Origin: an uncultured virus (IMG/VR IMGVR_UViG_3300036790_000345)
Lineage: Duplodnaviria > Heunggongvirae > Uroviricota > Caudoviricetes
Length of the DNA: 64,000 nucleotides
Reading direction: 5' to 3' (one strand)
Virus record (IMG/VR): IMGVR_UViG_3300036790_000345
Each line of letters starts with the position of its first letter. The first letter of the stretch is position 1. Below are positions 8,581-64,000 of this stretch, piece after piece. The translations under genes and the position numbers were made by a program. The notes under the pieces are model-generated. The model saw nothing but the letters and a program-made list of their open reading frames with translations. It had not been told where the DNA came from and did no database searches.

Positions 8581-8657
8581 ACTGACACTTCTCCCTGCGA
8601 TAAAGGGGGAATGTTCCCCGGGGGCCGGGTGTGTCACAGGTGGGTGTCCCGGCCAGT

Positions 8658-9590
8658 TCAGCGAGAGCGTCCTTTCCGGGGAGCGCGCTCGCGGTTGACG
8701 AGATCGGCGGGGTAGCGGTAGTGCGGGCGGTCACGTTCGGTCACTTTTGGGGGGTTACGCTCTGCGACATCCGGGGTCTCAGGTGTCCTAGTTTGTCCTA
8801 GCTTGTGGTGCTGGGAGGGCCGCCCGAAGGGCGCTGTTGCGGCCCTCCCAGCTTGGTCCGGTGACGGTGCGTCACGCCGCATCCGCGCACGGATCCCGGC
8901 CGTCACCCGCTGTAGCCGTCCCCGGCGCTGCGCCCATGCCTGCTCCTTCGTCCCGGTGTAGCCGCCGTGCTTCTGGGCCAGCGAGAACACCCAGTCGGTG
9001 CCCTTGTAGCCGAAGCGCTCCGCGACCTTCTGCAGGTTCTCGCCCGCTCGCAGCATGTCGCCGGCGTCGCGGCCGACCTGCTCGACGCACGGAACGCACC
9101 GCTTGCCAGGGTTGCGGGTCTTGCCGCCGCAGTGCTCATAGTTGATGCAGTCGTGCTGCGGCGGCGGCACCGGGAGCGGGCGTCCGCCGTTGTTGCGGAC
9201 CTTGTCCTGGTGCTGCTTAGGCCCGTCGCCCGTGAACAGGTTGCCGCCGCGAGCCCGCGACTCCTCCTCGGTGGCGCCGGGCCTCCACTTGTTGTTTGTC
9301 CCGCGATCGTCGTAATGACGTGATTGCAGGCCGTCCGGGATCGGCTTTCCCCTGAACTCGAAGTTCTCCAGCACCACCCGGTGCGCCTGGCGGGTCACGC
9401 GCTTGCCCTGCGCGTTGACGTACTTCACCAGGACGTAGCCGTCCTTGGTGGTGGTCGTGGCGACCGGGCCGCCCTTGAGGTGGCGCCCTGACGGGCTCAC
9501 GCGGTCGCCGACGCGGAAGTTGCCGTCCCAGCTGACCTCGAGGTCCGGGCCGTCCCAGACCGGCGTCCAGCGCTCGGGTTCCTCGCTCAC
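8658..9590 (-). CDS. NUMOD4/HNH-type endonuclease-like protein
   Basis: ERWTPV..LEVSWDGNFR..KDGYVLV..AHRVVLENF..RHYDD..NN; GTG start overlaps the traB-like stop. Confidence 0.65.
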   Translation of the reverse strand: MSEEPERWTPVWDGPDLEVSWDGNFRVGDRVSPSGRHLKGGPVATTTTKDGYVLVKYVNAQGKRVTRQAHRVVLENFEFRGKPIPDGLQSRHYDDRGTNNKWRPGATEEESRARGGNLFTGDGPKQHQDKVRNNGGRPLPVPPPQHDCINYEHCGGKTRNPGKRCVPCVEQVGRDAGDMLRAGENLQKVAERFGYKGTDWVFSLAQKHGGYTGTKEQAWAQRRGRLQRVTAGIRARMRRDAPSPDQAGRAATAPFGRPSQHHKLGQTRTPETPDVAERNPPKVTERDRPHYRYPADLVNRERAPRKGRSR

Positions 9591-11437
9591 CGTGACCTCA
9601 CCCTCTGCTTGCTCAGCTCGTAGGCGCGGATCTCGCCGATGTCGTACAGGTGGGCATTGCCGCGGCGGCCGACGGGCTGCGGGTGCTCCGGGTCGCGCGT
9701 CGAGTTGCGCTGCGCCGCTATGATCGTGCGGGGGATTACCCGGGCCTGGCAGAGTTCGCGCAGGGTTGCCGACCCGGCCGGCCACAACGGGCCGGGACCT
9801 AGGACGTCCGCGACTTTCCCCAGGTCAGGGCCTTGCGTAAGCTCCCCGGCGATGTCCGCGACAACAGAGACGGGGCTCATGCCGCCCACGCAGGGCATGT
9901 CGTGGCGGGGGATGGCGACGGCGCCGGCGGTGGCGAACGCGCGGGCCTCTTCCTCGGTGATGAACGCCACCTGGAACTCGCGCACCGCCGAGCGCGTGAC
10001 GAGCTGGTGGCGTCCCTGGTGGCCGCTCGGCGCCGGGCGGGGATGGTCGTCGCCGACCAGCATCTTCCAGGTCGACTCGCTCGGGTCATGGAAGGCCAGC
10101 AGGCCGAGGTTCTCCCGCGCGTCGGCCCCGGCGCCCGCGCCCGAGGTGGCCTTGACCGACAGGCGCTGGCCGATCTGGCACTGGTTCATGCGGACCTGGC
10201 GGCCGATGAAGCTGATCTCGTCCAGGGCCTCCGACGCGGGGGAGCGCTTCGGCTCGCCCTTGCCGCGGATCGCCCGCCAGAACGCCGCCAGCCGGTTCTG
10301 GGTGGCGTTCAGCTCCTCGGCGAAGATGAAGATCCGGGGGCCGACGTCGCCGGTCACGTTGCCGCGGATGTCGGCCGAGGCCAGGGCGACCTTGTTGCGC
10401 CGGCCCGCTTCCTCGGCGAGCCACTCGCACATGTCGTGGATCTCCGCAGGGGTTCCGGCGTAGGCCACGTTCGGCAGGCCCCGCGCCCACATGTGGGAGA
10501 TCAGCTTGTAGTCGAGGAACACCAGCAGGGCACCGTGATAGGCCATCTGGGCGGCCCACAAACGGGCCAAAGTGGACTTACCGTCGCCGGTGCCCATGGA
10601 TATGCCCTGGTGGGGCGTCTCCACGTCAACGCTGACCTTGACGAGGGCGCTCTTGCGGCCGATGCCGGTGACGATCTCGTGCGGCTTAGCCTTGCGGATC
10701 TCCGGCAGGATGTCGGCGAACGACACCTGCACCGGGGGCGGCTGCGAGCGCAGGAACGTGACCTGGGGCTTGCGGCCCTGCAGTTCCCACTGCGCGTCCG
10801 GGTTCTCGATCGGCAGCTTGGACGTGACGGCCCGCACCACCTCGCCGCGGTCCTTGTCGGCGCCCGTGAACGCGGCAGGCAAGCCGAGCACGACCCGGCT
10901 GTAGTCCGGGGCCACCTCCAGCCGGGTCGGCGGGGCACCGAGGGTGGGGGCGACGGCCACGCGCAGCGGGCGCACGTAGCGGGCGTGGTGCAGGGCCAGC
11001 TCGACTGGGCGCTTGTGCACCGGGTGGTGCCCGAACTGCGCCAGGCGGCGCCCGGTCAGCAGCGCCAGCGCGACTGCGGCGGCGAGCAGGACGGCGGCGA
11101 GCACGGCTGCGGTAACCACGGGCTCAGTCAGCGCGGCCAGTGCCAGCGCGGGGAGCAGGAACGTCGTGCCGCCCCGGATCGCCGCCCGCCGGCGCCGGGG
11201 CCAGTGATGCCAGGACACGGCGTTCCCGGTGACATGGAGTACCCTGGTTGACTTCTTGCTCCAGGTCGCGTTCGTCCGGTGCCGGCCGTCCATCGCATGG
11301 CCGGTCAGCCAGCGGAAGACCATGACGTGGCCGCCGTTGCGCTTACCCCGGCCCGTGACCTCCGTCAGGGCACCGGCAAGCGCCAGCGCGCCGAGCATCG
11401 CCCAGCACGCCAGCAGCAGCAGCCACGCTCCGGTCAT
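9587..11437 (-). CDS. FtsK/SpoIIIE-family TraB-like DNA translocase
   Basis: N-terminal TM segments, Walker A variant MGTGDGKST, Walker B IFIFAEE, GQR motif, C-terminal winged-helix-like end (GRRGNAHLY). Confidence 0.75.
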   Translation of the reverse strand: MTGAWLLLLACWAMLGALALAGALTEVTGRGKRNGGHVMVFRWLTGHAMDGRHRTNATWSKKSTRVLHVTGNAVSWHHWPRRRRAAIRGGTTFLLPALALAALTEPVVTAAVLAAVLLAAAVALALLTGRRLAQFGHHPVHKRPVELALHHARYVRPLRVAVAPTLGAPPTRLEVAPDYSRVVLGLPAAFTGADKDRGEVVRAVTSKLPIENPDAQWELQGRKPQVTFLRSQPPPVQVSFADILPEIRKAKPHEIVTGIGRKSALVKVSVDVETPHQGISMGTGDGKSTLARLWAAQMAYHGALLVFLDYKLISHMWARGLPNVAYAGTPAEIHDMCEWLAEEAGRRNKVALASADIRGNVTGDVGPRIFIFAEELNATQNRLAAFWRAIRGKGEPKRSPASEALDEISFIGRQVRMNQCQIGQRLSVKATSGAGAGADARENLGLLAFHDPSESTWKMLVGDDHPRPAPSGHQGRHQLVTRSAVREFQVAFITEEEARAFATAGAVAIPRHDMPCVGGMSPVSVVADIAGELTQGPDLGKVADVLGPGPLWPAGSATLRELCQARVIPRTIIAAQRNSTRDPEHPQPVGRRGNAHLYDIGEIRAYELSKQRVRSR

Positions 11438-11454
11438 GGTGCGGTGTTCTCCTC

Positions 11455-12249
11455 TCAGGCGGTACGGGAGCGGGAGGAGCGGTCCAGGCGAGCCCAGCGG
11501 CCCTTTTCCCGGGTGCGCTCGCGGGGGACGAACTCGTCAGGGCGGCGGGCGAAGGGCGGCGCGCCATCTTTCGCCGCCGGGACGGGCTGGCTGCGGATTT
11601 CCGGGGCGCGGCGCGCGGGCTGCGGGTGGGAGCGCGCCTCAGCTTTCCGGGCCGCCGTCTCCAGTTCCTGTGCCCGGCCGAAGTCGTGTTCCGAGCGGGC
11701 ACGGGCGGCCTCGTCCCGGTACTGCGAGGTGAGCCGCTCGGTTTCGGTGACGGCCCTGGCCAGCCGCTGCGCCGGGGCGCGCTGCGCGGGCGGGACGAGC
11801 CCGGCCTGCTTCAGCAGGTCCGGCTGGCGGGCAGGCTGGCCGCTCCCCTTGGCGCGGGCGGGCGGGGGCCGCAGGCGCTCGCCGCGCTTCAGCGCCTTCT
11901 CGCGCTCCTTCAGGTCCGGGTTCGTCAGCGGGCCGCTCATCGGCGTGTGCCTGCGCCAGGGCGTTCCGGGCGCGGGTGCCGCGTGCCGCCGGCCCTTGGA
12001 GGCAGGCGCCGCGAGGCCGAGCCTGCGGTGCAGCGACGCGGGCGTGACCTTACGCGCAGCAGGCTTGAGCAGCCGGTCCTGCAGCCGGCGCTTGAATCCC
12101 CGCCGCTTGTGCAGGATGGCCTGGATCTCCTTGTGGGCGGCGACGCGCACCGCGTGAAAGGGCGAGCGCAGGTGCTTGATCGCCGCGTTCATGCGGAGCC
12201 GGTCGGGCCAGCTCAGCCGCTGGTGGGAACCTGAGTTCTGCTTAGCCAT
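11455..12249 (-). CDS. Basic hypothetical protein in transfer operon
   Basis: 264-aa ORF, GAGGAGGA RBS, co-oriented with neighbours. Confidence 0.55.
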   Translation of the reverse strand: MAKQNSGSHQRLSWPDRLRMNAAIKHLRSPFHAVRVAAHKEIQAILHKRRGFKRRLQDRLLKPAARKVTPASLHRRLGLAAPASKGRRHAAPAPGTPWRRHTPMSGPLTNPDLKEREKALKRGERLRPPPARAKGSGQPARQPDLLKQAGLVPPAQRAPAQRLARAVTETERLTSQYRDEAARARSEHDFGRAQELETAARKAEARSHPQPARRAPEIRSQPVPAAKDGAPPFARRPDEFVPRERTREKGRWARLDRSSRSRTA

Positions 12250-14042
12250 GCGGGTGCATCCTCCTCAATCTGTACGGGGTGACGGTCTTCGATCACGGGC
12301 GCGGGCGCGCCGGGCATCGGGATGGCATCGCGCGGGGCCGCGGCCTCAAGCTCGGGCGGCTGCGGCGCCAGCGCGGCCTGCTGGGCGGCCAGCAGTGCCG
12401 GGCCGAGCGGGGCGGGCTTGTAGCCGGGGAGCTTCCACGCGGGCTCCAGGCGCGCCAGCAGCGGGCGCGTGGAGCGGTGCAGCAGGACGGCCTGCCACGG
12501 CTTCAGGGTGCGGATCCGCTCCGGCGGGAACAGCCGCTCCTTGCCCGGCTGGCGGGTCTTGCGCCCGTCCGGGCCGCGGGAATGGTGCCAGGTGTCGCGC
12601 TCCCCGCACACCGCGGACAGGGCCTCGAGCTCGGCGTGGTCGTTGCGGCCGCGCAGGATGAGCTGGACGGTGGCGTTGTCGCGGATGGTCTTCGCCCCGT
12701 GCTCCCCCCACCGGGAGGCGAGTTGCGCCGGGGACTGGACTCCCGTGATGATCGTGATCCCGTGGCCCCCGGCCTCGGCGGACCACTTGTCGATGGGGAC
12801 CGGGCAGGTGATGGCGGGCTCGTCGAGGACCATCGTCAGGGGCGGGTCCAGGCGCATGCCCTCGCAGCGGGACGCCAGCCGCTTGGCCGTCGACCAGATA
12901 TGGGCGGTCATCCAGGCGCAGTAAGGGGCCACGCTGCCGTGCGGCTTGTCGGCCGCGATCAGGTACAGCGTCGCGCCGGAGAGGATGAAGTCGACGGCGT
13001 CGAACTCGGCGTCGCGCGGGCCGGGGCAGGCGACCATTTCCATGAACGGGTCGTCCATCCACGACACCGCGCCCTCGGCCGCCCCGGTGATGCCGTCCAG
13101 GGTTTCCGGGGCGATCGACAGCAGCCCGGCCAGCTTCCCGGCCCATCCCTCTGCCGCGGACGGCAGGCACAGGGCGGCGGCGAACCGCGGGTCAGCCGGG
13201 TTGCGCACCCACGCGGTCACGTGGCGCATGTCCCCGCCAGCGACCGCGGCGGCGTGCATCGCCAGGCGCAGCAATTCGGCGCCGCGCTGATCCCAGTGCG
13301 CGTCCTTCCCCGTCTTGTCGGACGGGGCGGCGTGCATCAGGTAGCCGGCGGACTCGATCGCGATCTGCGGGATATGGCACCCGGTCAGCGGCGACAGCAT
13401 GAAGTTCGTCGGCAGGTCCCCGTCACCGTCCGGGTTGAGCACCCACAGCGGGCCCTTCGCGGCTCTGGCCATCGCGGTGTGCACCCACGTGTCGGTGCGC
13501 GTGGTCGTGGAGATCGCGGCGCCGGGAGCCTCGGCCAGCCACGCGCATTCCGTCCCGGACTTGCCGGTACGGGGGGCGCCGATGAGCAGGATCACGTCCT
13601 CGTGGGAGGCCATCAGGGTGCGCGCCGGGGTGGTGCAGGACGAGCCGAGGCGGATGCCCGCGTCGGCCGCCGGGATCTTCCCGGCCAGCGCCGGGCGCGT
13701 CACCTTCGCCTGCTTGCGGGCCGCCCGGACCGACAGGCTGCCGCCGACCTCGCGCCGGGTGGCGGTCCCCTGGAACTTCCGCCGCTGCCTCGCGGCACGC
13801 TTGCCGCCCGAGCGGCGCTCCCGCAGGCTGTCCCAGCCATCCCGGCCGTACCAGACGGCCACGCCCCCGGCGGCGAAGCCGGTAAAGGGCAGCGGCGCCG
13901 CGTGGGCAAGCTGGAGGATCTCAGCGGCACCGAGGACGACCGCCGGCCTGACGGTGGCCTTCACCACGGCGCGCCGGGCCTTCTCCTTGCGGGCCTTGAC
14001 GAAGCCCTTCGCCGGGGGCTCGGGCTGCTTGCGCTTGATCAC
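12213..14042 (-). CDS. VirD4/TraD/TraG-like type IV coupling protein
   Basis: Walker A GAPRTGKSG, ISTTTRTD, LDPPLTMVLDEPA, GVQSPAQLASRWG..GAKTIRDNA. Confidence 0.85.
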   Translation of the reverse strand: MIKRKQPEPPAKGFVKARKEKARRAVVKATVRPAVVLGAAEILQLAHAAPLPFTGFAAGGVAVWYGRDGWDSLRERRSGGKRAARQRRKFQGTATRREVGGSLSVRAARKQAKVTRPALAGKIPAADAGIRLGSSCTTPARTLMASHEDVILLIGAPRTGKSGTECAWLAEAPGAAISTTTRTDTWVHTAMARAAKGPLWVLNPDGDGDLPTNFMLSPLTGCHIPQIAIESAGYLMHAAPSDKTGKDAHWDQRGAELLRLAMHAAAVAGGDMRHVTAWVRNPADPRFAAALCLPSAAEGWAGKLAGLLSIAPETLDGITGAAEGAVSWMDDPFMEMVACPGPRDAEFDAVDFILSGATLYLIAADKPHGSVAPYCAWMTAHIWSTAKRLASRCEGMRLDPPLTMVLDEPAITCPVPIDKWSAEAGGHGITIITGVQSPAQLASRWGEHGAKTIRDNATVQLILRGRNDHAELEALSAVCGERDTWHHSRGPDGRKTRQPGKERLFPPERIRTLKPWQAVLLHRSTRPLLARLEPAWKLPGYKPAPLGPALLAAQQAALAPQPPELEAAAPRDAIPMPGAPAPVIEDRHPVQIEEDAPAWLSRTQVPTSG

Positions 14043-15935
14043 CGTGACCTCCCTCGTGCCCGCTTCCGTTGCGGCTCACGGGCCTGCGGGGTGCGGTCCG
14101 AGACGCCCGCCTGGGGCGGCCACAGCACCTTCATGGCGATCCCGTGCCGCTCCCAGGCGGTGTCGTCGCCTTTCTGGCAGCGACACGGCTGGCCAGTCAG
14201 GTCATCGCCCGGGTGGTCAGGCTTGGTGTTGGTGTAGAGGCTGCGCCGGTAGTCAAGCTGGTCGCGGCGCTCGCGCTCGCGTGCCAGCCAGTCCGCTTCG
14301 GGCGAGGTGCTCACCGTGACCTCCCGGTCTTGCGCCGGCCGCGCCATGCGTCCCGCACCTCGCGCAGGTCCGACACGGCATAAGCGCGCTGGAAACCTGA
14401 CAGCGGGCGCTCGGTCTCGCGGACCCGGCCGTTCAGGCGGCGGAACTCGGGCGTCTCCTCGCGGATCCGGGTCTTGCGCGCCCGCTCGCCGTAGTCCCCC
14501 AGTGCCCGGCGCGCCCGGTCGAACGCGTCCACTTGCTCGCGGGTGCCGCGCTTGCGGCCGGGGAACCAGGTCACCGGGACCTCCCCGGCGGGCGCGCCCA
14601 CGGGTTGTGCTCGGCCTGCCTCATCGCCTCGGCGGCGCGGGCAGAACGTCCCGGGCCGAGTACCCGGTCAGCGTGCTCGTTGATGCGCTGACGGGATGCG
14701 GTGACCTCGCGCGCCGGGCCGCTGCGGTAGGCGTCCGGGCCGTGCTCCCACGCCGTGGCGCGCAGGCGCCGGGCCTGTTCCTGCGTCAGGCGGTCCAGCC
14801 GCATCCGGCTCAGTGCCTCGTCGCGGCGCCCGTAGACCTCGCGGTCGTCGGCGCGGGGATGGCCCGTGGCCGGGTTGACCCGGTCCCGGTAGAGCGGCAG
14901 CGACGAGCGCAGGCGGCGGGTGGCACGCTCGGCGACGAAGCCCTTCCCGGTCTCGGCGAACCGGCGCCGGCGGTAGTTGCCGACACCCTCGGGGAAGCGG
15001 CGGGACCAGACGGGAATCTTCACCGGGACTCCTCACGTCGCTGCGGCACGGCATCGGTGATGGCCCGCAGGACTGCCTCCGGGTCGCTGGCGCCGTGGAC
15101 GTGGATGTGAAGGTGGTTCGCCGGGGCGGCGACGGCCTGCCGCCGTGCCGCGCCCACGCCGGGGACCACCCGCGCCGTCACCGCCTGCTGAGCCACGGGA
15201 ACGGTCCCGCGCGTCACCGTCCGCAGGCCGTTGCGGCGCAGCACCAGCAGCAGCACCGCGCACGAGGCGGCGGCGACCGCGATCATCGCCACAAGCGCGG
15301 CGGCCAGGATGCTGGCGATCAGCGTGGCGAAGTAGACGCACGCGCCGGCGACGACAGCGAGGAGGGCCAGCGGCGTCCAGTCGGCGCCGTAGGAGACGGT
15401 GACCCTGGCCGGGGCGTGGTGGATGAACTTGGTCATGAGCACCGGGGCCCTTCCGGCGGGTCACGCTGCAGCATCTCGGCGTACTCGTCCTCCGGCCACA
15501 GCCGCGCGCCGAGAGCAGCAAGCCATTCCTCGTCACGCCCGGGCAGCTCGCGCGCGAGGATCTCCGGGTGCCGCACTGTCGGGAAGCCGATCCGGTCAAC
15601 CATCGGGCGCCGGTCGCGGCGGATCACCAGCAGGGCCAAGTGCAGGAACCGCGCCTGCTGGCTGTAACGGGCCCGCCGGCAGAGGCCGCGCAGCCGTCTC
15701 ATGACCGGCCCCCGGCAACCAGCCGCATCCCGTGGCGCCGCGACGGCGGATACCCGGGAGGAGGCCACGACGGTTCCTCTGGCTCGCGGCCCTGGCGGCA
15801 CATCAGGATGTCCTCGATGCCCTGCAGTCGCTCGGCCAGCTCGCGGTGCATCTCGATGAGGCCCCGGTCCAGGGCGTCCATCTGGTCGGCGAGGCTGCCG
15901 GCGTGAGAACGGCCGGACGGTAAGGTGGACGCCAT
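14039..15935 (-). other. Cluster of small, translationally coupled minus-strand genes (14039-14311 region, 14311-14574 region, 14571-15023, 15020-15442 membrane protein, 15699-15935)
   Basis: Consecutive ORFs joined by RBS plus overlapping GTGA stop/start. Confidence 0.55.
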
Positions 15936-54200: not shown

Positions 54201-57031
54201 GGCTGCCAGACCACGCAGACGCCGAATTCGTGGCCATGATGAGCCCGCCCGTAGCCCTTCTCCTCGCTGACTTGCTGGAAGACGAGGCGCGCCTTGAGTT
54301 CGGTGCCGAGCCCGACACCCCGCTTCTGCTCGCCCGCGCGATCCTGAAGGAGTCCCGATGACCGCCCCGGACCGCCCGGCCGCCACGTCCGAGACCTACT
54401 CCTGGGCAGGCACCGACGCGAAGGGCATAGCCCACATCGGCCGCACCGGGTACACAGCCACCCAGATCGCGGTCATCACCGAGAACTACTACCGCAAGGG
54501 CTGGCGGTCGCTGCGCGTGGCCCGGGGCTGGGACCTGCCGGACGCGGGCACCGCGGATCTTGTCGCCGCGATCGGGCCGCATCCGGGAACCGGGCGCCGC
54601 ACGTGGTGGGCAGAGGGCGCCGGAGACGCTGAGCGCGCCGTGAGAGCGCAGCTAGGAGAGACCGATGGCCACTGACACCGACCACGCCCGCGCCTTCCTG
54701 GACGACTTCCGCCGTCGCGGCGAGGTCTTCGGCGAGTACTCCGCGCCGGATGTCAATCGTCTCCTCGCTGCGGCTGAGGCGGTACTGGCGAAAGCCGACT
54801 CGTGGCAGCGGTTCGCCGTTCCGGGCGATGTCGGCTACGACGATGCGCAAGCCTTCCGCGAGGCCATCACCACCGCACTGCTCGGTGAGGGGGACGACGA
54901 TGTCTGAAGCCGCCCCGGACCGGGCAGCCGCCGAACTGGCCGCCATCCGGGAGTACGCCGAAGCGGCCACCAAGGGCCCATGGTGGCACGACGAGGACGA
55001 GCTGATGTGGCGCCTCCACGGCGTGCACGCGGTCATCCCGGCGTGGCCGGACGGCCTGATCGGCGAGCAGGTCATGAACCATCAGATTCTCAAGGCACCC
55101 AAGAGCGGAACACCCTACGCCGAGTACTGGCCGTCGGAAGCTGACGGCGCGTTCATCACGCGCTCGCGGTCCGACCTGCCCCGTCTCCTCGCTGTGGTTG
55201 AGAAAGTCCTGGCGGCCCATCATGACTCCGGCGGACGCTGCTCCTGGTGCCGGAACCCCGACGGCCAGCGAGCGCTATGGCCCTGCGGGGAACACCTGAC
55301 CATCACCAGGGAACTGCTCGCCGAGGGGGACGGCCATGAAACTGACTGAGAGCGCGAAAACAACCCTCCGCGCGGCCGGCGTCACGCAGGCCGAGTGGGC
55401 ACGGGCGAACTACATGCGCGACGGCAAGTGGAGCGGGGATGTGTGCGGGTGCCCGGACTCTGGCCGCTGCGCCAACGGGTTCCACCACATGGGCACCGAC
55501 GACTGCGGCTGCCTGCCCGCGCTGCTGGAGTCGTACCTCGCCGGGGAAGGAATCTTCGACGTGACCCGCGCCGAGGAGCTTCAGCGCCGGCGAGGAGGTG
55601 CCCCTGTCATGACTGACTGGGGACCGTTCGAGACACGGGATGAAGCGTCGGCCTGCCCGGCTGTCCGCGAGATCCACGAAGCGCGGCACGCCTTCACCGG
55701 CCCCGTCACCGCCGAGACCCGCCGCGCCGACGAGGCGATGATCTCGGCGCTCATCCTCGCCGCCTGCGAGGAGGCCGGGGTCACGCTGGGCGCCTACGAC
55801 CGGCGGATCGCTGAGTGGCTGGCTGGCTTCGAGCCTGAGGCGTGCGCAGTGGTTGCCGGGCTCATCCGCAGGGCGGCAGCAGCGAAAGGGGATCCCGATG
55901 GCACCTGAGACCACGCCTAGCCGCTCGGTGACCTCGCGCGGGTTCGACACCTACGACGAGTTCCGCGATTCCTACGGCGCCGAAGTCACCGTCCGCCAGT
56001 CGTCAGCCGCCAGCGGCCCGCATGTGTGGCTGTTCATCACCGGCGGCGCCATGGTCAGCCCTGATCACCCCAACGACGGCTCGGCTCACCTGACCGTGGA
56101 GCAGGCTAAGCGCGTCCGGGACGCCCTGGACGCCTTCATTAAGGAGCGCGCCCCCGATGGCACCTGAGACCCCCCCTACCGCTGAGACGCTGGCGCTGTT
56201 CGAGATCAAGGCACGCGGCTACCACAACGGCGCGCGCGGCATCCTCGCCGCACGGCTGTCGGACTGCGCCGCCATCGACATCCCCCGTCTCGTCGCTGCG
56301 GTTGAGGCAGTACTCCGTGATCACGAGCCCCGCACACCGATACCGCCGAACAGGCATTACCGGATCTGCCGGGCCTGCAGCCGCATATGGCCGTGCGCGA
56401 CTGTTCAGGACGTCACCCGGGAACTGCTCGGCGAGGAGTACGGCCATGGCTAGCACCCGCCTGGCCGGCCACGCCCTGCAGCACGAAGGCAAGCCGTATA
56501 AGCCCGGCGAGCTGAACCCGTGGCTGCGGGCCTACGGCACCTCTTCCGGCGCAGGCCTGTGCGAGTGCGGGGAGACATCGCCCGTGCTGGGGTCCGATGC
56601 TGCCCGCAAGAGGTGGCACCGGGATGTTCACAAGCCGCAGGTGCGCGCCGGGGTCACCGGGGAGGGCGAGGATGGCTAGGCAGCGCAAACCCCTTGATGT
56701 CGAGGAAATCGTCAGGCTCTACCTGGACGAGCGCCTCTGGCCGCGCGAGATAGCCGCGCGCTTCGGGACGACGGCCATGACCGTCCGCAGCCGCCTGCGC
56801 GAGGCCGGCGTCTATGAGCCCGTATCGCAGGCGCGTGACCCTGGCGAGCGGTACCTCGTGCACCTGTGCGCCCGCTGTGCCCATCCCGGCGGCCAGCACC
56901 GCCTGGACGACGGTTGCCGGTGCGGCTTTTGCGGTGGCTGGGAGGATGCGGGCGAAGGGTACTGGAGCGACGCCATGACCCGTCAGCTTGAGATCGACGC
57001 GGGCATCACCAGGGAGGACGGCGATGGCTGA
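51244..57031 (+). other. Dense cluster of small hypothetical phage genes, many Cys-rich; 52100-52444 resembles DUF6283
   Basis: Consecutive RBS-preceded or overlapping ORFs. Confidence 0.6.
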
Positions 57032-57341
57032 CACCGTCGCCGGGTTCGCCTCGTTCGCCCTGGACCGCCTCGGCGAGCACTTCCCCGGCCACGCCGCCGA
57101 CCCGGCCCAGCATCTCCTCAAGCTCGGCGAGGAGTACGGGGAGCTGACCGGGGCGTGCATGCGCTACCTCGGCCGCTCCCGCCGCGCCGGGACGCTGGAG
57201 GAGGTAGCCGCCGAGGCCGCGGACGTGCTCATCACCCTGCACATCCTCGCCGCGTCCCTGGGCATCGACCTGGACGCCGCGTGGAGGGCCAAGGCGGCCG
57301 TGATCGCGGGCAGGCCGTGGCGGGAGGCCGGCGGTGAATGA
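57024..57341 (+). CDS. MazG-like nucleotide pyrophosphohydrolase
   Basis: KLGEEYGEL...EAADVL acidic motif; GGAGG RBS. Confidence 0.8.
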   Translation: MADTVAGFASFALDRLGEHFPGHAADPAQHLLKLGEEYGELTGACMRYLGRSRRAGTLEEVAAEAADVLITLHILAASLGIDLDAAWRAKAAVIAGRPWREAGGE

Positions 57342-57512
57342 TCACCCGTGTGTCGGACCGCACTTCCGCACCATCCGGGGCCGGATGATCTGCCAGTGCG
57401 GGTGTGAACGCTGCTCCGCCGACAAGCGGTACTGCACCTGCACGGGTTGCCAGTGCCGGAAGGACGAGGACCACGACGATGCCTGACTACCCGGCACCGG
57501 ATGGAGGCTGTG

Positions 57513-58019
57513 ATGGCTGAGCCTTGGCCGAAGACAATCCCCGACCCGGCAGACCCTTCCGGGCTGGCCAGCCTGCCGATGCCGGACGAGATGGCTCGCG
57601 CAGACCAGTACGTCCCGTCCCGGGCCGAGCTCGACAATGAGGCCTACCTGGTGTCCCGCGGCGTCCGCCCGCTGGCCCTGGCCGGCCACTACCCGGCCGT
57701 CCCGCTGGTCATGTGCCGGGTGAAAACCCTGCTGCACCGGGCCCGGCAGTCCGAGCTGGTGATCCCGTTCATTTTCGCCGAGGGCGGCGACCCTGGCTCC
57801 GCAGCGTTCGGCTACGCCTCGCACCGCTGGTGCATAGACCTGCTGGAGTGGGCCCTTGACGGCGGCGTGCCGCCGGACCGCAAGCACGAGATCCTCGGCC
57901 TGCTGCTCGGCTACTCGCCGTCATCGATAGCACGGCACCAGGAACGCGGCGAGCTGTGGGCGTACCGGGACGAGGACGAGCGCGATAAAAATTCCAAGAT
58001 CAGGTTCCCGGCAAGATGA
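57513..58019 (+). CDS. Hypothetical protein immediately upstream of the Cas12m-like gene
   Basis: GGAGG RBS; ends 14 nt before the effector start. Confidence 0.65.
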   Translation: MAEPWPKTIPDPADPSGLASLPMPDEMARADQYVPSRAELDNEAYLVSRGVRPLALAGHYPAVPLVMCRVKTLLHRARQSELVIPFIFAEGGDPGSAAFGYASHRWCIDLLEWALDGGVPPDRKHEILGLLLGYSPSSIARHQERGELWAYRDEDERDKNSKIRFPAR

Positions 58020-58033
58020 AGGAGGCTGGAGTC

Positions 58034-59686
58034 ATGAGCGAACACGCTGAACGCGACGTGCCTCTCATGCGAGCCTTCGCGTACGGCTGCCCGGCACGCG
58101 CTGACCTGGACGACGCCGGCATCCGCCAGCTCCGGCTGGCGAACCAGCTGTGGAACGCGCTGGTGGAGGCCGAGCACGCGCACGAGGACGCGAAGGCCGC
58201 GATCTGGGGGCGTGACCCGCGGGTCGCCGCCGCGCAGGAAACGCTCGCCGCCGCGCAGCAGGCCGCGGATGAGATCCGGGAACGGATACGCGCCAGCCGG
58301 CAGGCTGACCGGACCACGGTGCCCCGTGACGGCGACAAGTCCGCCCTCGCGGCTGCGTCCTCGGCGCGCAGGGAGGCGAAGACGGCGCTGGACGCCGCGC
58401 GGCAGGCTGCGCTGCCCGGCCTGCGGGAGGCGTTCGGCGAGGCGAAAAAGGCCCGCGCCGCCGCGCACAAGGCCCTGTACAAGACGTTCGTGCAGGAGAA
58501 AGGGCTCGGCTGGGGCACCCACAATGACATCGTGCGCCGCCGGTTTCCTGCTGCGGTGGCGAAGGTGGAGGAACGCCGCAAGTCGGGCCTGCCCGCGCAA
58601 CTGCGGTACAGGCGGTTCGATGGCACGGGGACGCTGACGGTGCAGGTTCAGCGGCAGGCCGGGCACCCGCCGCGCACCGTCCCGGCGCTGAACAGCGGCC
58701 GGCACCCGCAGTCCGGTGTCCTGGCCCTGACCCCGTGGCAGGACATGGCAGGCCGGCCGAAGGGCGCTGCGCGGCACGGCACGCTCACGGCCAGGATCGG
58801 CCGCGGGCGCGGCTTTGACCCGTTGCGGCTGGAGATCCCCGTGGTGCTGGACCGGTACCTGCCGGCGGGCGCGGACGTGTGCGAGGTGAAGATCAGCCGC
58901 CGGGTCACCGGCACCCACGCCCGGCTGTCAGTGTCGGTCGTCTGCCAGGTTCGCGAGCCCGCGCCGCGCGGCGGCCACGCTGACGTCGCTGTGCGTCTCG
59001 GCTGGAAGTCGGCCGGGGACGGGTGGACCGAGGTAGCGCACATCGGCAGCAGCGACCCGCTCCCGGCACCTCCTGCTGCCATTGCCGCGATCACTCGCGT
59101 CAGCGGGGACGGCCTGTCAGCGGACGTGCTGTACCCGGCCGAGTGGCGGAAGCTGCTCGAGCGGGACGCGGCCATACGGTCGGTGCGTGACCAGGATCTG
59201 GAGCCGGTGCGGGACAAGGTGACTGTGGCGCTGCGGCAGGACGCCGTGCTTGCGGAGTCCCTGGGCGTGACCGCGGGTGAGGTGTCGCGGTGGCGGGCAC
59301 CGCGCAGGTTCGCGGTTCTGGCCCGGTCGTGGCCGGCCGGGCACGAGCTGGCGCCCGTGCTGGAGGAGTGGCGGCGGCGGGACAGGCACCTGTACGACTA
59401 TGAGGCACACGAGCGCGCCCAGGTGACCGCCCGGCGGCGGGACGCGTGGCGGTGCGTGGCGGCGTGGCTGTGCACCGCTGCCGCCGGGGTCGCGGTTGAC
59501 GGCCTGGACGTGGCCGCGCTGAAACGCGAGCCGGATGTCAGCCGCGAGGATCCAGAGCAGGCCCGGCGCGGCCGTGCGCAGATGCACGCCGCGGCTCCCG
59601 GCGAGCTGCGCGCCGCTGTCCTCGCGGCGGCGAAGGCCAGGAAGATACCGGTTACCGTGATACGCAGGAGAAAGGACGAGACGTGA
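58034..59686 (+). CDS. cas12m: Type V-M (V-U1) Cas12m-like CRISPR effector, 550 aa, C-terminally shortened
   Basis: QLRLANQLWNALV, KALYKTF, LRYRRFDGTGTLTVQVQRQAGHPPRT, VAVRLGWKS, WRAPRRFA, AAPGELRAAV are collinear with Cas12m motifs as I recall them; AAGGAGG RBS; adjacent CRISPR array. Confidence 0.85.
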   Translation: MSEHAERDVPLMRAFAYGCPARADLDDAGIRQLRLANQLWNALVEAEHAHEDAKAAIWGRDPRVAAAQETLAAAQQAADEIRERIRASRQADRTTVPRDGDKSALAAASSARREAKTALDAARQAALPGLREAFGEAKKARAAAHKALYKTFVQEKGLGWGTHNDIVRRRFPAAVAKVEERRKSGLPAQLRYRRFDGTGTLTVQVQRQAGHPPRTVPALNSGRHPQSGVLALTPWQDMAGRPKGAARHGTLTARIGRGRGFDPLRLEIPVVLDRYLPAGADVCEVKISRRVTGTHARLSVSVVCQVREPAPRGGHADVAVRLGWKSAGDGWTEVAHIGSSDPLPAPPAAIAAITRVSGDGLSADVLYPAEWRKLLERDAAIRSVRDQDLEPVRDKVTVALRQDAVLAESLGVTAGEVSRWRAPRRFAVLARSWPAGHELAPVLEEWRRRDRHLYDYEAHERAQVTARRRDAWRCVAAWLCTAAAGVAVDGLDVAALKREPDVSREDPEQARRGRAQMHAAAPGELRAAVLAAAKARKIPVTVIRRRKDET

Positions 59687-60216
59687 TGACAGGCCAGATA
59701 CCGTCCGGGTCGATCGGGCAGCAGCTCCGCGAGGCGCTGAAGGCGGGCGCGACGCCGGAGGATGCGGTCCGCAAGGTGCTCGGCCCGTTCGGCGCGGTTC
59801 TCGCGGAGGCAGGCAATGATCACCTGGTCGGGTATGCGCGGCCGGCGGTGCTGTCGGAGGCGCGGCGGCTGGGCCGTCAGCTGATCCGCCGGGCGGAGGA
59901 CCGGTCGTTCGGCGCGGCGCCGGCGTCGCGGGACCGGATGCGGCTGGGGCAGATCGAGTTTCACCTGCCGGATGGCCAGGTGGTGTCGTGGGCGGATGCG
60001 ACAGCGGAGCAGCACGGGGCGCGTATCGCGTGGCTGCGGACGTATATCTCCAGCGTGGAGGAGGACCTGGCCCGTCATGAGCGGGCGGCGAAGCTGCTGG
60101 CTGAGCATGGCGCGGCGAAGCTGTCCGACATCCCCGGGTGGGAGGATCTGATCGGCGACGACGCGGACAGCGAAGACGCGGATGACGGGGATGCGAGCGC
60201 TGAGGCGGTAGCCTGA
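59683..60216 (+). CDS. Uncharacterised 177-aa protein between effector and array, acidic C-terminal tail
   Basis: GTGA overlap with the effector stop, AAAGGA RBS, high-GC3 codon usage. Confidence 0.8.
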   Translation: MMTGQIPSGSIGQQLREALKAGATPEDAVRKVLGPFGAVLAEAGNDHLVGYARPAVLSEARRLGRQLIRRAEDRSFGAAPASRDRMRLGQIEFHLPDGQVVSWADATAEQHGARIAWLRTYISSVEEDLARHERAAKLLAEHGAAKLSDIPGWEDLIGDDADSEDADDGDASAEAVA

Positions 60217-60360
60217 AAGCCGGGGAGCGCTCGCACGCAGGTCAGGGCGGGTATTGCGCATCTTGACAACTGAACGTATGAGCGAAAAGGTGTTCGCGGA
60301 ACGGTCCGCTCGCAGTGGTCCCGCATACCCGCAGGCCAGGTGCCCCGTATTCTGCGAGCC
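60217..60360 (+). promoter_or_regulatory. CRISPR leader
   Basis: Non-coding, relatively AT-rich, TTGACA at 60263; at the non-degenerate end of the array. Confidence 0.6.
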
Positions 60361-61277
60361 GTCGCTATGCCGGCGCAGAGGCTTCGTATCTGCGAGCGTT
60401 GAGGTATTCAGATCGGGCCGATCTGGCGTCCCGGTCGCTATGCCGGCGCAGAGGCTTCGTATCTGCGAGAGGCCCTCCAGCGTGGAGGCCAGCTCGTCGT
60501 CGATGAGTCGCTATGCCGGCGCAGAGGCTTCGTATCTGCGAGAGGCCCTCCAGCGTGGAGGCCAGCTCGTCGTCGATGAGTCGCTATGCCGGCGCAGAGG
60601 CTTCGTATCTGCGAGCGGATCTACGACGTGCTACCGGACGACGAGAAGATCATGTCGCTATGCCGGCGCAGAGGCTTCGTATCTGCGAGGATATCAGCTG
60701 CTGGCAGTGCGGCCCGGTGTGCGCGGGGTCGCTATGCCGGCGCAGAGGCTTCGTATCTGCGAGGCATCGGTTAGTGCCGTGGCGGCCGGTCGCCAGCACG
60801 TCGCTATGCCGGCGCAGAGGCTTCGTATCTGCGAGTAGTCCACCTTCACGGCTCGCTGGTCGACGTACATGAGGTCGCTATGCCGGCGCAGAGGCTTCGT
60901 ATCTGCGAGGGGGGCAAGGCCCATACGCCTGCCTCGACTCGGACGACGTCGCTATGCCGGCGCAGAGGCTTCGTATCTGCGAGACATCCACTCCGTGAGG
61001 TCGGCGCTCGCTAGCTCGCGTCGCTATGCCGGCGCAGAGGCTTCGTATCTGCGAGATGTCGGAGACCGGGGTGACGCGCAACTCCGGCTTCGTCGTAATG
61101 CCAGCGCAGAGGCTTCGTATCTGCGAGCTGTTGATGTGGCCCACCGCGTCGGCGATCTTGTCGATGTCGTCGCTATGCCAGCGCAGAGGCTTCGTATCTG
61201 CGAGGTACAGTGTGGTGCAGGGGGCGTCTCCGACTCGCAGAGTCGTAATGCCAGCGCAGAGGCTTCGTATCTGCGAG
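60361..61277 (+). CRISPR. CRISPR array: 13 repeats of 36 bp (GTCGCTATGCCGGCGCAGAGGCTTCGTATCTGCGAG) and 12 spacers of 36-41 bp
   Basis: Repeats start at 60361, 60434, 60507, 60580, 60654, 60728, 60800, 60874, 60948, 61020, 61092, 61169, 61242; 3' hairpin CGCAGA/TCTGCG; last three repeats carry variants. Confidence 0.99.
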
Positions 61278-61311
61278 AAGCCAGCTATCCGCGCGATCCA
61301 TCAAGATCATC

Positions 61312-61641
61312 TTGTCGCAGGTGGACGACGAGGCACTGGCCGCCTTCGGCCGCAGCCTCACTGCCCAGATGGAAGGCGTCCAGGAATGGATGCGGCAGGC
61401 CTTCCATCTGCTCGCCCGCGCGGTCGCCCGGGCCGCAGACGACACGGGCAAGATGCTCGCCGCGGCGTTCAGCTACACCTGGGACGACCGGCTGCACTAT
61501 CACGCCCCGGACGCACCCCGCCGGGTGCTTCGCCGCTGCCGGGCCTGTCACCCGGAGGGCAACCCGCTCCCGCTGGCCGTTGACGGCAGGGGGTACCGGC
61601 GGCGGCAGTCAGCTCGCAGGCGGCGCGGCAGAGGCCAGTGA
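61312..61641 (+). CDS. Hypothetical protein or 5'-truncated gene remnant after the array
   Basis: Coding-like composition but no clear RBS or start. Confidence 0.35.
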   Translation: MSQVDDEALAAFGRSLTAQMEGVQEWMRQAFHLLARAVARAADDTGKMLAAAFSYTWDDRLHYHAPDAPRRVLRRCRACHPEGNPLPLAVDGRGYRRRQSARRRRGRGQ

Positions 61642-62583
61642 TGCGGCCAGAGCGTAAACGGGGGAGTGGTCAAGCCGGGAGCGCATCCGGTCGTAGCGCT
61701 CGGTAGTCCGCGGGTCGACGTGGCCGGCTAGCGCCTGCACGTCCCGCAGTGAGCAACCGCGCTCGAGCGCCTCGGTCAGCGCCGAGTGCCGCAGCGAGTG
61801 GGGATGCAGCGCATTCGCCTGCGGCAGTTTCGCCCGCACTGCGATGCGGCGGATCAGCCGGTACAGGCCCGGCTCGTCAAGACGCCCGCGGCCGCCATCG
61901 CGCGGCGAGGTCGCGAAGAGCGGGCCGTCAATGCGCCCGTCCAGGTAGGCGTCCAGCACGACGCCGACCCACGGCGCGACCGGCAGGTGCTGGCGCCTGC
62001 CGCCCTTCCGGGTGACCGTGAGCACCCGGTGGCCCCCCGTGTGGCCTAGGTCGTTCACATCTGCCGCGAGTACCTCGGTGGTCCGCGCCCCCGTGGTCAG
62101 CATCACGGCGGCGAGGGCGTGCGCCCGGCGCGAGTGCGCCTGGGCCGCCTCGAGGAACGCGACCATCTCCTTGCGGTTCAGCCACGAGATCGTGTCCTCG
62201 TCCTGCTGGCGCTTCGGCCGCTTCATCTCCTTGATCGGGTTGGCTTCCATGTCGCCGGTCTCTGCGGCGTAGCTGAAGAACGACGACGACGACGACAGCC
62301 GCCGCGCGATGGTCGCCTCGGAGACCGCCCGCGAGCCGTCTTCGCGAACTGTGCGGCGCATCGACTCGGCCCACGCCGCTACCTGCCGCCGCGTCGCCGC
62401 GAGGACGCTGGTGCCGTGCTCGCCGAGGAATGCCGCGAGAAGCCTGATGTCCTTCGCGTACGCGGTGCGCGTGTTGGCGCCCGGGTGCTCGAGCAGCCAT
62501 CCGGTGATGGCGCTCAGGGAGTCGCTGTCTGCGGCGATGACGGCGAGCGCGTCAGGCTCGGCCGCGGCGGGCAAGATCGTCAT
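61609..62583 (-). CDS. Tyrosine recombinase (XerC/D-like)
   Basis: TGARTTE, RKGG, HPHSLRH, LAGH, TTERY catalytic residues; N-terminal NTRTAY..D. Confidence 0.92.
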   Translation of the reverse strand: MTILPAAAEPDALAVIAADSDSLSAITGWLLEHPGANTRTAYAKDIRLLAAFLGEHGTSVLAATRRQVAAWAESMRRTVREDGSRAVSEATIARRLSSSSSFFSYAAETGDMEANPIKEMKRPKRQQDEDTISWLNRKEMVAFLEAAQAHSRRAHALAAVMLTTGARTTEVLAADVNDLGHTGGHRVLTVTRKGGRRQHLPVAPWVGVVLDAYLDGRIDGPLFATSPRDGGRGRLDEPGLYRLIRRIAVRAKLPQANALHPHSLRHSALTEALERGCSLRDVQALAGHVDPRTTERYDRMRSRLDHSPVYALAASLASAAPPAS

Positions 62584-62960: not shown

Positions 62961-64000
62961 CTAGACGGGGATGCCGGAGTGCCCCGGCCCCTGCCATGGC
63001 GGTTCCCAGGCGGGGAACACCCGGGCATGGCAGTCCTGCCCGTCCTCGCCGCGCCATGCCACCACCGAGAGGATCAGGCCGGCCAGCGCGTTCCGGGCCC
63101 GGTCCGGGCGCATGGTGTCCCACTCGTCCAGCAGTGTGCGGATGACCGGGTGCACGTCGGGTGCCATGCCGCCGGCCCGCTGCTGCTCGCGGGCCAGCAA
63201 GGTGACGATCCGCTCCCGCTCGGCGAGCAGCTCGGCTCTCGCCCCGGCCCATGCCCGCGCGGGGACGTCCTCCTCGCGTGCCTGCCGGGCCAGGAGCCGG
63301 GCCAGTTCCCGGTCCTTCTTCGCGAGCTCGGCCTCCAGCTGCCCGGCGCTGGCCCGCGCGGCGGAGACCGCCGCCCCGGCCGCGGCCAGCCCCTGCTCGC
63401 CGGCGAGGCGGATGTCCTCGGCGGCGAGCCACGCCAGGACGGCGCCGAGGACGGCGTCGTAGCGGACGCCCCGCCCTCGCGAGGGACAGTCCTTGTACCG
63501 GTCCCAGCGGGAGCACCGCGCCAGCGTCCGTGCCGTGCCGTGCGAGATCTTCAGGACGGCCTTCGCCCCGCAGTGCCCGCATTGCAGGAGGCCGGTCAGC
63601 GCGTAGCGGGGCGCGCGGGAGCGCGGCGGGGTGGCGCTGACCGCGGCGCGCCGGCGCAGGTACGCCTGCCATTCGGGGGGGCTGATGACAGGCTCGTGGG
63701 CGCCGGCGAGCAGGACCGTGCGTGAGCAGCGGGCCGCCTTGCCGCAGCCGCACGCCGGGTCGTGGACGCGCAGGTACCCGGCGCCGAACCCGGAGTCGAG
63801 GGTGCGCCGGACAAGGTAGGGCGCCCACCTGGTGCCGCGGGTGTTGCGGATCCCCGCGTCGTTGAGCACGGCCGCGATGACGGCCGGCTGGTCGCCCCGG
63901 ATGTAGGAGAGGTACATCTCGCGCAGCACCGGCCCGGTCAGCGGGTCGTGCTCGTACCGCTCGCCGGCCGGGTCGGCGGTGTCGCGGCGGGTGCGGCGCG
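62961..64000 (-). CDS. Large serine recombinase/integrase, C-terminal part (5' beyond window)
   Basis: IAAVLNDAGIRNTRGTRW, GAHEPVIS, LTGLLQCGHCG zinc ribbon, coiled coil; frame open to the window end. Confidence 0.88.
   Translation of the reverse strand, partial: RRTRRDTADPAGERYEHDPLTGPVLREMYLSYIRGDQPAVIAAVLNDAGIRNTRGTRWAPYLVRRTLDSGFGAGYLRVHDPACGCGKAARCSRTVLLAGAHEPVISPPEWQAYLRRRAAVSATPPRSRAPRYALTGLLQCGHCGAKAVLKISHGTARTLARCSRWDRYKDCPSRGRGVRYDAVLGAVLAWLAAEDIRLAGEQGLAAAGAAVSAARASAGQLEAELAKKDRELARLLARQAREEDVPARAWAGARAELLAERERIVTLLAREQQRAGGMAPDVHPVIRTLLDEWDTMRPDRARNALAGLILSVVAWRGEDGQDCHARVFPAWEPPWQGPGHSGIPV

Follow-up and report, generated by a model that had tools for sequence, protein, structure and literature searches.

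Can a CRISPR effector of a kind that binds DNA without cutting it lose the end of its nuclease lobe and remain a working protein? The question is raised by a gene in a 64,000-nucleotide (nt) stretch of DNA from an uncultured virus of the Caudoviricetes (IMG/VR record IMGVR_UViG_3300036790_000345), the whole of which we call the window. An initial annotation, made from the letters alone, described this gene, hereafter the effector gene, as coding for a Cas12m relative of nuclease-dead appearance that lacks the entire zinc finger/RuvC-III end; in the window it is followed by a small gene and a CRISPR array (Table 1). Cas12m proteins are reported to bind DNA without cutting it and to silence plasmids and phages (PMC11013384; PMC10442227; like the other papers cited below, these are drawn on in excerpt). 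As being nuclease-dead is already the norm for Cas12m, it is the lost domain that is the news. We present evidence that the effector is probably a working member of a distinct Cas12m (type V-M) lineage, which has lost the TNB zinc finger together with RuvC-III and no longer maintains its RuvC site.

A Cas12m homologue that ends before its zinc finger

The open reading frame (ORF) is a Cas12m (type V-M, formerly V-U1) homologue. HMMER searches of Protein Data Bank (PDB) sequences recovered Cas12m2 (8hhl/8hio) at E=3e-59 over query residues 34-550 with ~30% identity, GoCas12m (8pm4) at E=2.6e-57 and two newer Cas12m entries. The PADLOC Cas12u1 profile matched at E=3.4e-97, while Pfam and NCBIfam offered no significant family. 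The homology stops short of the end of its relatives: only positions 4-487 of the 533 in the Cas12u1 profile are covered, as against 12-531 in a finger-bearing control (L003), and the alignment with Cas12m2 (residue numbers follow 8hio) stops at residue 541 of 596, after which the effector adds six residues and ends at what would be about Cas12m2 residue 547. This is two residues short of the first zinc ligand position, and the tail has no C..C motif. In Cas12m2 zinc is bound by His549, Cys552, Cys569 and Cys572, with Asp579 as the third RuvC residue (PMC10442227). Hence, because its end precedes both His549 and Asp579, the effector is without the TNB domain and RuvC-III, as the initial annotation had claimed.

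No finger lies hidden behind a frameshift or a read-through stop in the six frames of window positions 59400-61400. There, 16 finger-bearing relatives supplied a profile of their C-terminal 95 residues, which found only its pre-finger part (positions 3-37; 16.4 bits), with positions 46-91 unmatched and other fragments at no more than 1.5 bits; a positive control was matched over positions 3-91 at 111 bits. Nor was a remnant of the finger seen in six frames of the window and three related finger-less loci, where other fragments reached at most 2.1 bits. The possibility of an assembly error at the 3' end is countered by an 8229-nt Logan contig from a public soil-metagenome run: it agrees with the window at every position from 58016 to 60390, without gaps. 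This match is to a contig, not to raw reads, and the run, which has 80% of the sampled words, possibly stems from the same sample as the window. A joint of 59618 to 61144 on one Logan contig, with only 21 nt on one side, was taken as a spurious short match. Short contigs ~92-99% identical to window positions 58915-59460 occur in a run labelled as an aquatic metagenome, which suggests a close relative elsewhere.

An AlphaFold2 model of the effector, built on alignment A3, has a predicted local distance difference test (pLDDT) score of 95.4 and a predicted TM-score (pTM) of 0.91. Foldseek superimposed it on Cas12m2 in its full R-loop complex (8hhl_A) with a query TM-score (TMq) of 0.87 and a root-mean-square deviation of 2.6 Å, and on GoCas12m (8pm4_A) with a TMq of 0.88, over ~556-564 columns in the two cases. 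The modeled C-terminus consists of a helix (528-541) and a strand (546-549), the final one in the RNase H-like core. The prediction thus retains the bilobed Cas12m fold, with WED, REC1, coiled-coil REC2 and RuvC core, and leaves out the finger.

The truncation is shared by a clade

A word-indexed search for homologues of the effector returned 32 proteins (31 non-self). The first alignment took in 22 of the 31, omitting nine that are partial or odd-sized (P0008, P0009, P0011, P0012, P0019, P0020, P0025, P0026 and P0032). Seventeen of these 22 close homologues end at the same point as the window's protein, and the other five continue with H..CG...C..C..DQD.NAA. A profile search of 1.84 billion representatives yielded 3964 proteins at E<=0.001, of which the best 150 were used; with those of the word-indexed search they gave an alignment of 177 sequences (176 homologues and the window's), in 174 of which the C-terminal region is aligned. 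Among these, the finger is absent in 61, as judged by a tail of 0-29 residues without C..C, present in 109 and unclear in 4.

In a FastTree phylogeny of 155 rows of 480-700 amino acids (aa), computed with the tail columns removed, 51 of the 58 finger-less rows, the window's included, form one pure clade with a Shimodaira-Hasegawa (SH)-like local support of 97, and the presence or absence of the finger requires at least 5 state changes, against a mean of 47 in shuffles. The divergence within the clade is ~31-60% identity, the effector being about 40-60% identical to its close homologues, and members that look full-length are as short as ~535 aa. With this end point shared by 61 of 174 homologues, 51 of them in a single clade, we conclude that the truncation is selected and not the product of damage; the suggestion to this effect in the initial annotation is borne out by the homologues.

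These data bear most directly on the alternative that the gene is decaying or artefactual, cut short by a recent nonsense or frameshift lesion or by misassembly, in a dead system. One might be led to it by the absence of a domain that all characterised Cas12 and TnpB nucleases have, and by the degenerate RuvC residues. We find it scarcely credible, given the shared end point of 61 homologues and a 51-member clade with ~31-60% identity and a high-confidence fold. The absence of a finger remnant in any frame, the identity of the Logan contig across the junction, the intact array with its covarying repeat structure and the conserved overlapping partner gene (see below) speak against it too.

Two further features of the homologues are recorded here. 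Five proteins, P0093 (939 aa), P0162 (1047 aa), P0144 (836 aa), P0147 (806 aa) and P0160 (800 aa), match the profile in two or three stretches and may be fusions or carry insertions. A finger-less subclade (P0005, P0013-P0015, P0017 and P0018) has an N-terminal insertion of 16-17 residues after a YGCP motif (alignment A1, columns 46-62).

The remaining RuvC positions drift

In the HMMER alignment, Arg327, within HADVAVRLGWKS (VAVRLGWKS), pairs with His317 of Cas12m2, and Asp495, within AAGVAVDGLDVAAL (VAVDGLD), with Asp485. The initial annotation had placed RuvC-I and RuvC-II at these very strings and had given His for the former in MmCas12m, all of which agrees with the alignment. Of the three positions that make up a RuvC site, the effector thus has R327 and D495 at I and II, while position III is absent along with its helix.

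We counted the two surviving columns on a MAFFT alignment (A3) of 142 rows, 57 finger-less and 85 finger-bearing. The finger-bearing proteins have H (61), D (15), N (4), R (3) or others (2) at RuvC-I and D (62), E (15), G (5) or others (3) at RuvC-II; they also have a DQD-type RuvC-III motif, in agreement with the published H-D-D and D-E-D triads. At RuvC-I the finger-less proteins have R in 27 rows, D in 11, T in 5, K in 4, V in 3, H and A in 2 each and W, S and Q in 1 each, and at RuvC-II D in 26, S in 7, K and H in 5 each and others in 14. This lineage has kept neither triad nor a fixed substitute, a basic residue being the most frequent at RuvC-I. Judged from these columns, both remaining positions drift freely in the finger-less clade and the RuvC site is no longer maintained, which is as expected of a dead site and in keeping with the nuclease-dead appearance first noted. 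On the analogy of the Cas12m family, the finger-less effector would be limited to binding, as had also been suggested.

A co-conserved gene overlaps the effector gene

The last effector codons were said in the initial annotation to supply a ribosome-binding site and a GTGA overlap to the next gene. Both are present, as the AGGAG-type AGGAGAAAGGA and as a GTG(59683)/TGA(59684)/ATG(59686) overlap that joins the two genes; the conservation of that next gene as a partner had been missed. A tblastn search with its 177-aa product recovered only the window and three other loci (L010, L008 and L007, at 59%, 46% and 45% identity to the window's copy, respectively). The gene is thus found in 4/4 finger-less loci for which DNA is at hand, versus 0/16 distinct finger-bearing loci whose downstream DNA extends for 800 nt or more; two further loci, L014 and L021, duplicate L004 and L006 and are not among the distinct ones. 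Its start overlaps the effector stop in three of the four loci (window, L010 and L008), as TGATG or GTGA. In L007 the two genes are separated by a Shine-Dalgarno sequence and a mini-array (9600-9747) of two repeats and one spacer, and the main array of that locus follows the partner gene at about 10409-10815.

Database homologues of the partner number 25 by single-sequence search and 35 by profile, all of 89-188 aa and 53-88% identical to the window's copy. In nine pairs of effector and partner proteins the longest contig is of identical size (2577, 3190, 6127, 9156, 7456, 2466, 3870, 4379 and 93360 nt), which points indirectly to further co-location of the two genes. In alignment A2 of the family, certain Arg, His and Trp residues never vary and no cysteine is conserved; an RHER motif is present, and the acidic tail closes with a motif resembling ASGEVVP. 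In the AlphaFold2 model (pLDDT 89.4), four helices lead to a hairpin and a 35-residue helix, beyond which the acidic tail is disordered.

Searches with the partner family found nothing in Pfam, NCBIfam, PHROGs or PADLOC, and Pfam scans of each of the 26 members yielded no more than isolated matches, each in one or two members. Its fold found no relative in the PDB by Foldseek (best E 2.5), in a wide VIA-align search (best Z 5.1, the background for helical models) or in BFVD (best E 0.26, TM 0.45); the ESM Atlas returned only unnamed phage protein clusters (0.93), which we take as a lead and no more. The gene was not found by tblastn in phage or plasmid collections or by a pattern scan in viral contigs. 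A search, made without a positive control, of 401 genomes sampled from the phylum to which L001 belongs did not find it either. The idea of a split gene, with the partner as the detached end of the effector, was tried and rejected: hhalign detected no similarity of the partner family (A2) to the 16 finger-bearing tails or to the effector family (A1) (probability 0.15% and 0.4%, respectively). The 177-aa gene is a co-conserved partner, and perhaps one that the effector needs.

As a special case of the explanation we favor, the effector could come in two pieces, with the 177-aa protein binding the truncated RuvC lobe in a heterodimer and structurally replacing TNB and RuvC-III. The strict co-occurrence of the genes in loci with DNA and the translational coupling in three of the four fit such a device, and so does the fact that the partner (53-88% identity) is more conserved than the effector (about 40-60%); moreover, the hairpin and long helix of the partner model (E92-94, E100-102, H108-142) follow the element order of a zinc ribbon and the RuvC-III helix. 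We nonetheless hold it rather unlikely, since hhalign finds no likeness to the finger-bearing tails or the family profile, the partner has neither conserved cysteines nor an invariant acidic residue after the hairpin, and it is untraced for several clade members on long contigs. A wider proposal, which we offer tentatively, is that the finger-less clade and an obligate 177-aa subunit make up a distinct two-component variant of type V-M, in which the subunit would either replace TNB/RuvC-III or give a new output, for instance by recruiting or excluding a host factor through its acidic tail.

The array and its repeat

The array lies downstream of the partner gene, and arrays are present in all four finger-less loci with DNA, differing from locus to locus. 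In the window the three cas-distal repeats bear 1-3 changes each. Identical neighboring 37-nt spacers (60470-60506 and 60543-60579) represent a duplicated repeat-spacer unit. The 36-nt repeats of four finger-less and eight finger-bearing loci align without gaps, and across these 12 loci a pseudoknot (columns 9-11 with 20-22 and 14-19 with 29-34) is paired in 108 of 108 pair cells. Seven of its nine pairs change on both sides, a figure reached in 0 of 500 shuffles, and slid controls pair at 33-50%; as the pseudoknot was drawn from the same 12 repeats, the paired share is favored and the compensatory changes are the stronger point. Since this structure covaries in finger-less and finger-bearing loci, the guide-RNA handle is under the same constraint in both. 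Rfam had no match in 56000-62000, families of trans-activating CRISPR RNA (tracrRNA) included, and no other tracrRNA search was made; a simple scan of 57300-61700 turned up no sigma-70-like promoter.

Genomic context and distribution

The cas12m module is carried by an integrative mobile element. The array adjoins a tyrosine integrase, next to which lies a large serine recombinase that runs off the window. Conjugative and phage-like modules are mixed in this element, whose window has a G+C content of 70.6%. A TraG/TraD-like type IV coupling protein is flanked by large ORFs without Pfam matches (7549-15442, minus strand), and phage-like recombination and replication genes occupy 27.8-48.5 kb. 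The gene complement includes an Erf-like annealing protein, a PD-(D/E)XK exonuclease, an HNH endonuclease, DUF5131, two helicases, a DNA methylase, a Prim-Pol, a beta-clamp-like protein and a MazG-like protein. Immediately upstream of the effector gene is an unrelated 190-aa ORF (57447-58019) of no family. No cas1, cas2 or Cas3 was seen among the window ORFs scanned, and neither the scanned part of them (Pfam, PHROGs) nor L007, L008 and L010 revealed Tn7-like tnsB, tnsC or tniQ.

Among the related loci, L007 lies on a contig of 93 kb in a viral collection, and both L007 and L008 have tyrosine integrases within ~2 kb of the module. Linkage of an integrase to the module was considered and rejected: the integrases of the finger-less loci are only 24-25% identical to that of the window and placed differently, and are therefore not part of the module. 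Small helix-turn-helix (HTH) genes stand directly upstream of the finger-less cas12m at 2691-2912 in L008 and 7075-7377 in L007 (HTH_17 excisionase-like; HTH_31/Cro-like).

This setting could be read as that of a domesticated regulator, whose guides would repress genes of the host or of the element itself, as in TldR, with no part in defence. Its loss of the zinc finger/RuvC end would parallel TldR, integrases stand beside the module in the window, L007 and L008, the latter two of which also have HTH genes immediately before it, and no spacer matches a known phage or plasmid in the collections searched. We regard it as improbable, however: 11 different spacers, locus-specific arrays and distal repeat decay are usual in an immune or competition array but not where a single guide is fixed, the window outside the array is matched by no spacer, and the integrases, being divergent and differently placed, are no parts of the module.

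V-M systems are described as enriched on plasmids and as occurring in prophages (PMC11656645). No member of the finger-less clade was found with one peptide pattern in 185,579 species-representative genomes, where two finger-bearing relatives were found. None was found in the plasmid collection either, which held distant effector relatives at 32-36% identity on Mycobacterium and Allomeiothermus plasmids, or in the phage collection, which gave one distant effector match.

Table 1. Positions in the window of the effector gene, its landmarks and the features around it
Feature	Position	Strand	Remarks
cas12m-like effector gene	58016..59686	+	556 aa; WED-REC1-REC2-RuvC, without TNB zinc finger and RuvC-III helix
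Arg327 codon, RuvC-I position	58994..58996	+	His317 in Cas12m2, Asp in active Cas12/TnpB; from alignment
Asp495 codon, RuvC-II position	59498..59500	+	Asp485 in Cas12m2, Glu in active enzymes; from alignment
Final 14 codons (KIPVTVIRRRKDET, the C-terminus) and stop	59642..59686	+	last RuvC beta strand (model E546-549) and short charged tail; stop TGA at 59684-59686
Shine-Dalgarno-like AGGAGAAAGGA	59666..59676	+	within the last cas12m codons, 9 nt before ATG 59686; read from sequence
Partner gene	59683..60216	+	177 aa (176 aa from ATG 59686); between effector gene and array
Presumed leader, partner gene to array	60217..60360	+	assigned by position only; degenerate repeats lie at the other end of the array
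CRISPR array	60361..61277	+	13 repeats of 36 nt, 12 spacers of 36-41 nt (11 different)
Tyrosine integrase	61609..62583	-	Pfam Phage_integrase, PHROG integrase
Large serine recombinase	62961-63998	-	next to tyrosine integrase; runs off the window
TraG/TraD-like type IV coupling protein	12216-14042	-	Pfam/PHROG scans

Proposed function

By analogy with the rest of the family, the system most likely uses its guide RNAs to bind rival elements and silence them without cutting, with the partner protein taking part. The array would be transcribed from the cas-proximal leader and the CRISPR RNAs (crRNAs) cut, with the repeat pseudoknot kept as a 5' handle; processing of pre-crRNA by Cas12m is reported to be RuvC-independent (PMC11013384; PMC10442227). 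Through its WED, REC1, REC2 coiled coil and RuvC core, the effector would bind this handle, find double-stranded DNA flanked by a protospacer-adjacent motif and form an R-loop. It would then remain on the DNA and make no cut, because just one of three catalytic positions has a carboxylate and the substrate-loading domain is gone. Arg327 may grip a phosphate of the displaced strand directly, in place of the His317-Mg-Asp579 bridge of Cas12m2. Competing phages or plasmids would have their transcription or replication blocked by the bound complex, from which the integrative element that carries the module would profit, while the translationally coupled 177-aa protein would act as a dedicated, physically associated partner that stabilises the truncated nuclease lobe, tunes binding or adds an output.

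Cas12m proteins with D-E-D triads are reported still not to cut (PMC11013384), and Cas12m2 did not regain cleavage when its D-E-D was reinstated (PMC10442227). We read the effector most economically as a Cas12m that has taken a course already followed by its family one step further: the domain that feeds substrate to a dead site, and the third catalytic residue, would be expendable.

Several observations weigh against this proposal. An engineered deletion of the TNB (551-578) in PmCas12m markedly reduces or abolishes activity (bioRxiv 10.64898/2026.03.26.714355). In Cas12m2, His317, Asp485 and Asp579 help to retain the displaced strand, and D485A lowers binding (PMC10442227); the effector is without two of the three. 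In the tree, the support of which is local only, seven finger-less rows are placed apart from the main clade; they could reflect independent losses or truncated gene calls. The sequences of the clade are all metagenome-derived, a single one being labelled as a Streptosporangiaceae metagenome-assembled genome. The spacers found no convincing protospacer in the phage and plasmid collections (all rows at E>=0.08) and no match in the window outside the array or in the fetched loci. Finally, several finger-less effectors on long contigs are without a size-matched partner homologue (P0002, 35 kb; P0013, 19 kb; P0015, 16 kb; P0016, 18 kb; P0020, 25 kb; and P0029, 22 kb), and hence the partner may not be universal in the clade.

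Since the TNB deletion is crippling in PmCas12m and the H-D-D site of Cas12m2 holds the displaced strand, the finger-less lineage must have compensated for the loss. Candidates for this compensation would be the Arg/Lys at RuvC-I and the partner protein.

Significance and comparison with known systems

Cas12m is under development as a small nuclease-free DNA binder for CRISPR interference, base editing and epigenome editing. The initial annotation had seen in the effector a possible compact scaffold for the first two of these uses: it is indeed shorter, but the saving is small, as MmCas12m has 596 aa and the engineered xCas12m 581 aa against 556 aa here, and the damage done by TNB deletion in PmCas12m tempers the claim. 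A diverse natural lineage without TNB and RuvC-III would show that the TNB is dispensable in some sequence context, and the clade provides dozens of templates of 535-570 aa. The partner gene may have permitted the loss of the TNB or be a new functional add-on, either of which would be new type V biology. Were the two-component variant to prove true, it would be the first Cas12m system with a non-Cas accessory of its own and a natural blueprint for removing the TNB.

Among characterised proteins, Cas12m2/MmCas12m and GoCas12m (8HHL, 8HIO, 8PM4) are closest: the effector is homologous over residues 34-550 with the same WED/REC1/REC2/RuvC core, and their systems share a 36-nt repeat with a covarying pseudoknot, a downstream array and carriage on mobile elements. 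Like the H-D-D clade, to which Cas12m2 belongs, the effector has Asp at RuvC-II. It differs in having no HCCC zinc-finger TNB, no RuvC-III helix and no third residue, and in its Arg in place of His at RuvC-I, while canonical Cas12m loci lack the conserved 177-aa gene between effector and array. Published Cas12m clades are set by three-residue triads (HEK/HQK, HDD, DED/NED and DED/DND/NED; PMC10442227), none of which is possible for a protein whose RuvC-III position is missing. The excerpts of the Cas12m literature searched mention neither a finger-less Cas12m nor the partner gene, and the clades described there always have the TNB/zinc-finger domain (PMC11013384; PMC10442227; bioRxiv 10.64898/2026.03.26.714355); Wu et al. 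2022 (Mol Cell) and the supplement of PMC11013384 with its 134 variants lie outside that scope and may include such proteins.

The engineered xCas12m, made from PmCas12m, a homologue of the effector, likewise shrinks a binding-only Cas12m (bioRxiv 10.64898/2026.03.26.714355). There, only terminal trims were tolerated, down to 581 aa, whereas the natural lineage has lost TNB and RuvC-III together and stands at 556 aa. Cas12k (type V-K) and the Cas12m-Cas3 hybrid loci (PMC10910872) also tie a nuclease-dead type V effector to one or more extra proteins; the present locus differs in that no TnsB, TnsC, TniQ or Cas3 was seen in the ORFs scanned and its partner is small and without known domains, and by that scan of part of the ORFs it does not appear to be a type V-K CRISPR-associated transposon.

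In TldR, too, RNA-guided DNA binding persists after loss of the zinc finger/RuvC end, often on phages (bioRxiv 10.1101/2023.11.30.569447). TldRs, however, are TnpB-derived, use a single omega-RNA-like guide with no array and regulate host genes, whereas the effector has its closest relatives in Cas12m and comes with a multi-spacer array and a different partner; it is not a TldR. A 'gradual inactivation' has been noted for V-M (PMC10691335), and the finger-less lineage extends it to the outright loss of a domain inside a CRISPR system, in parallel to what TldR represents outside CRISPR. The effector is V-M by descent, stands outside the definition of that family by architecture and comes with an added gene.

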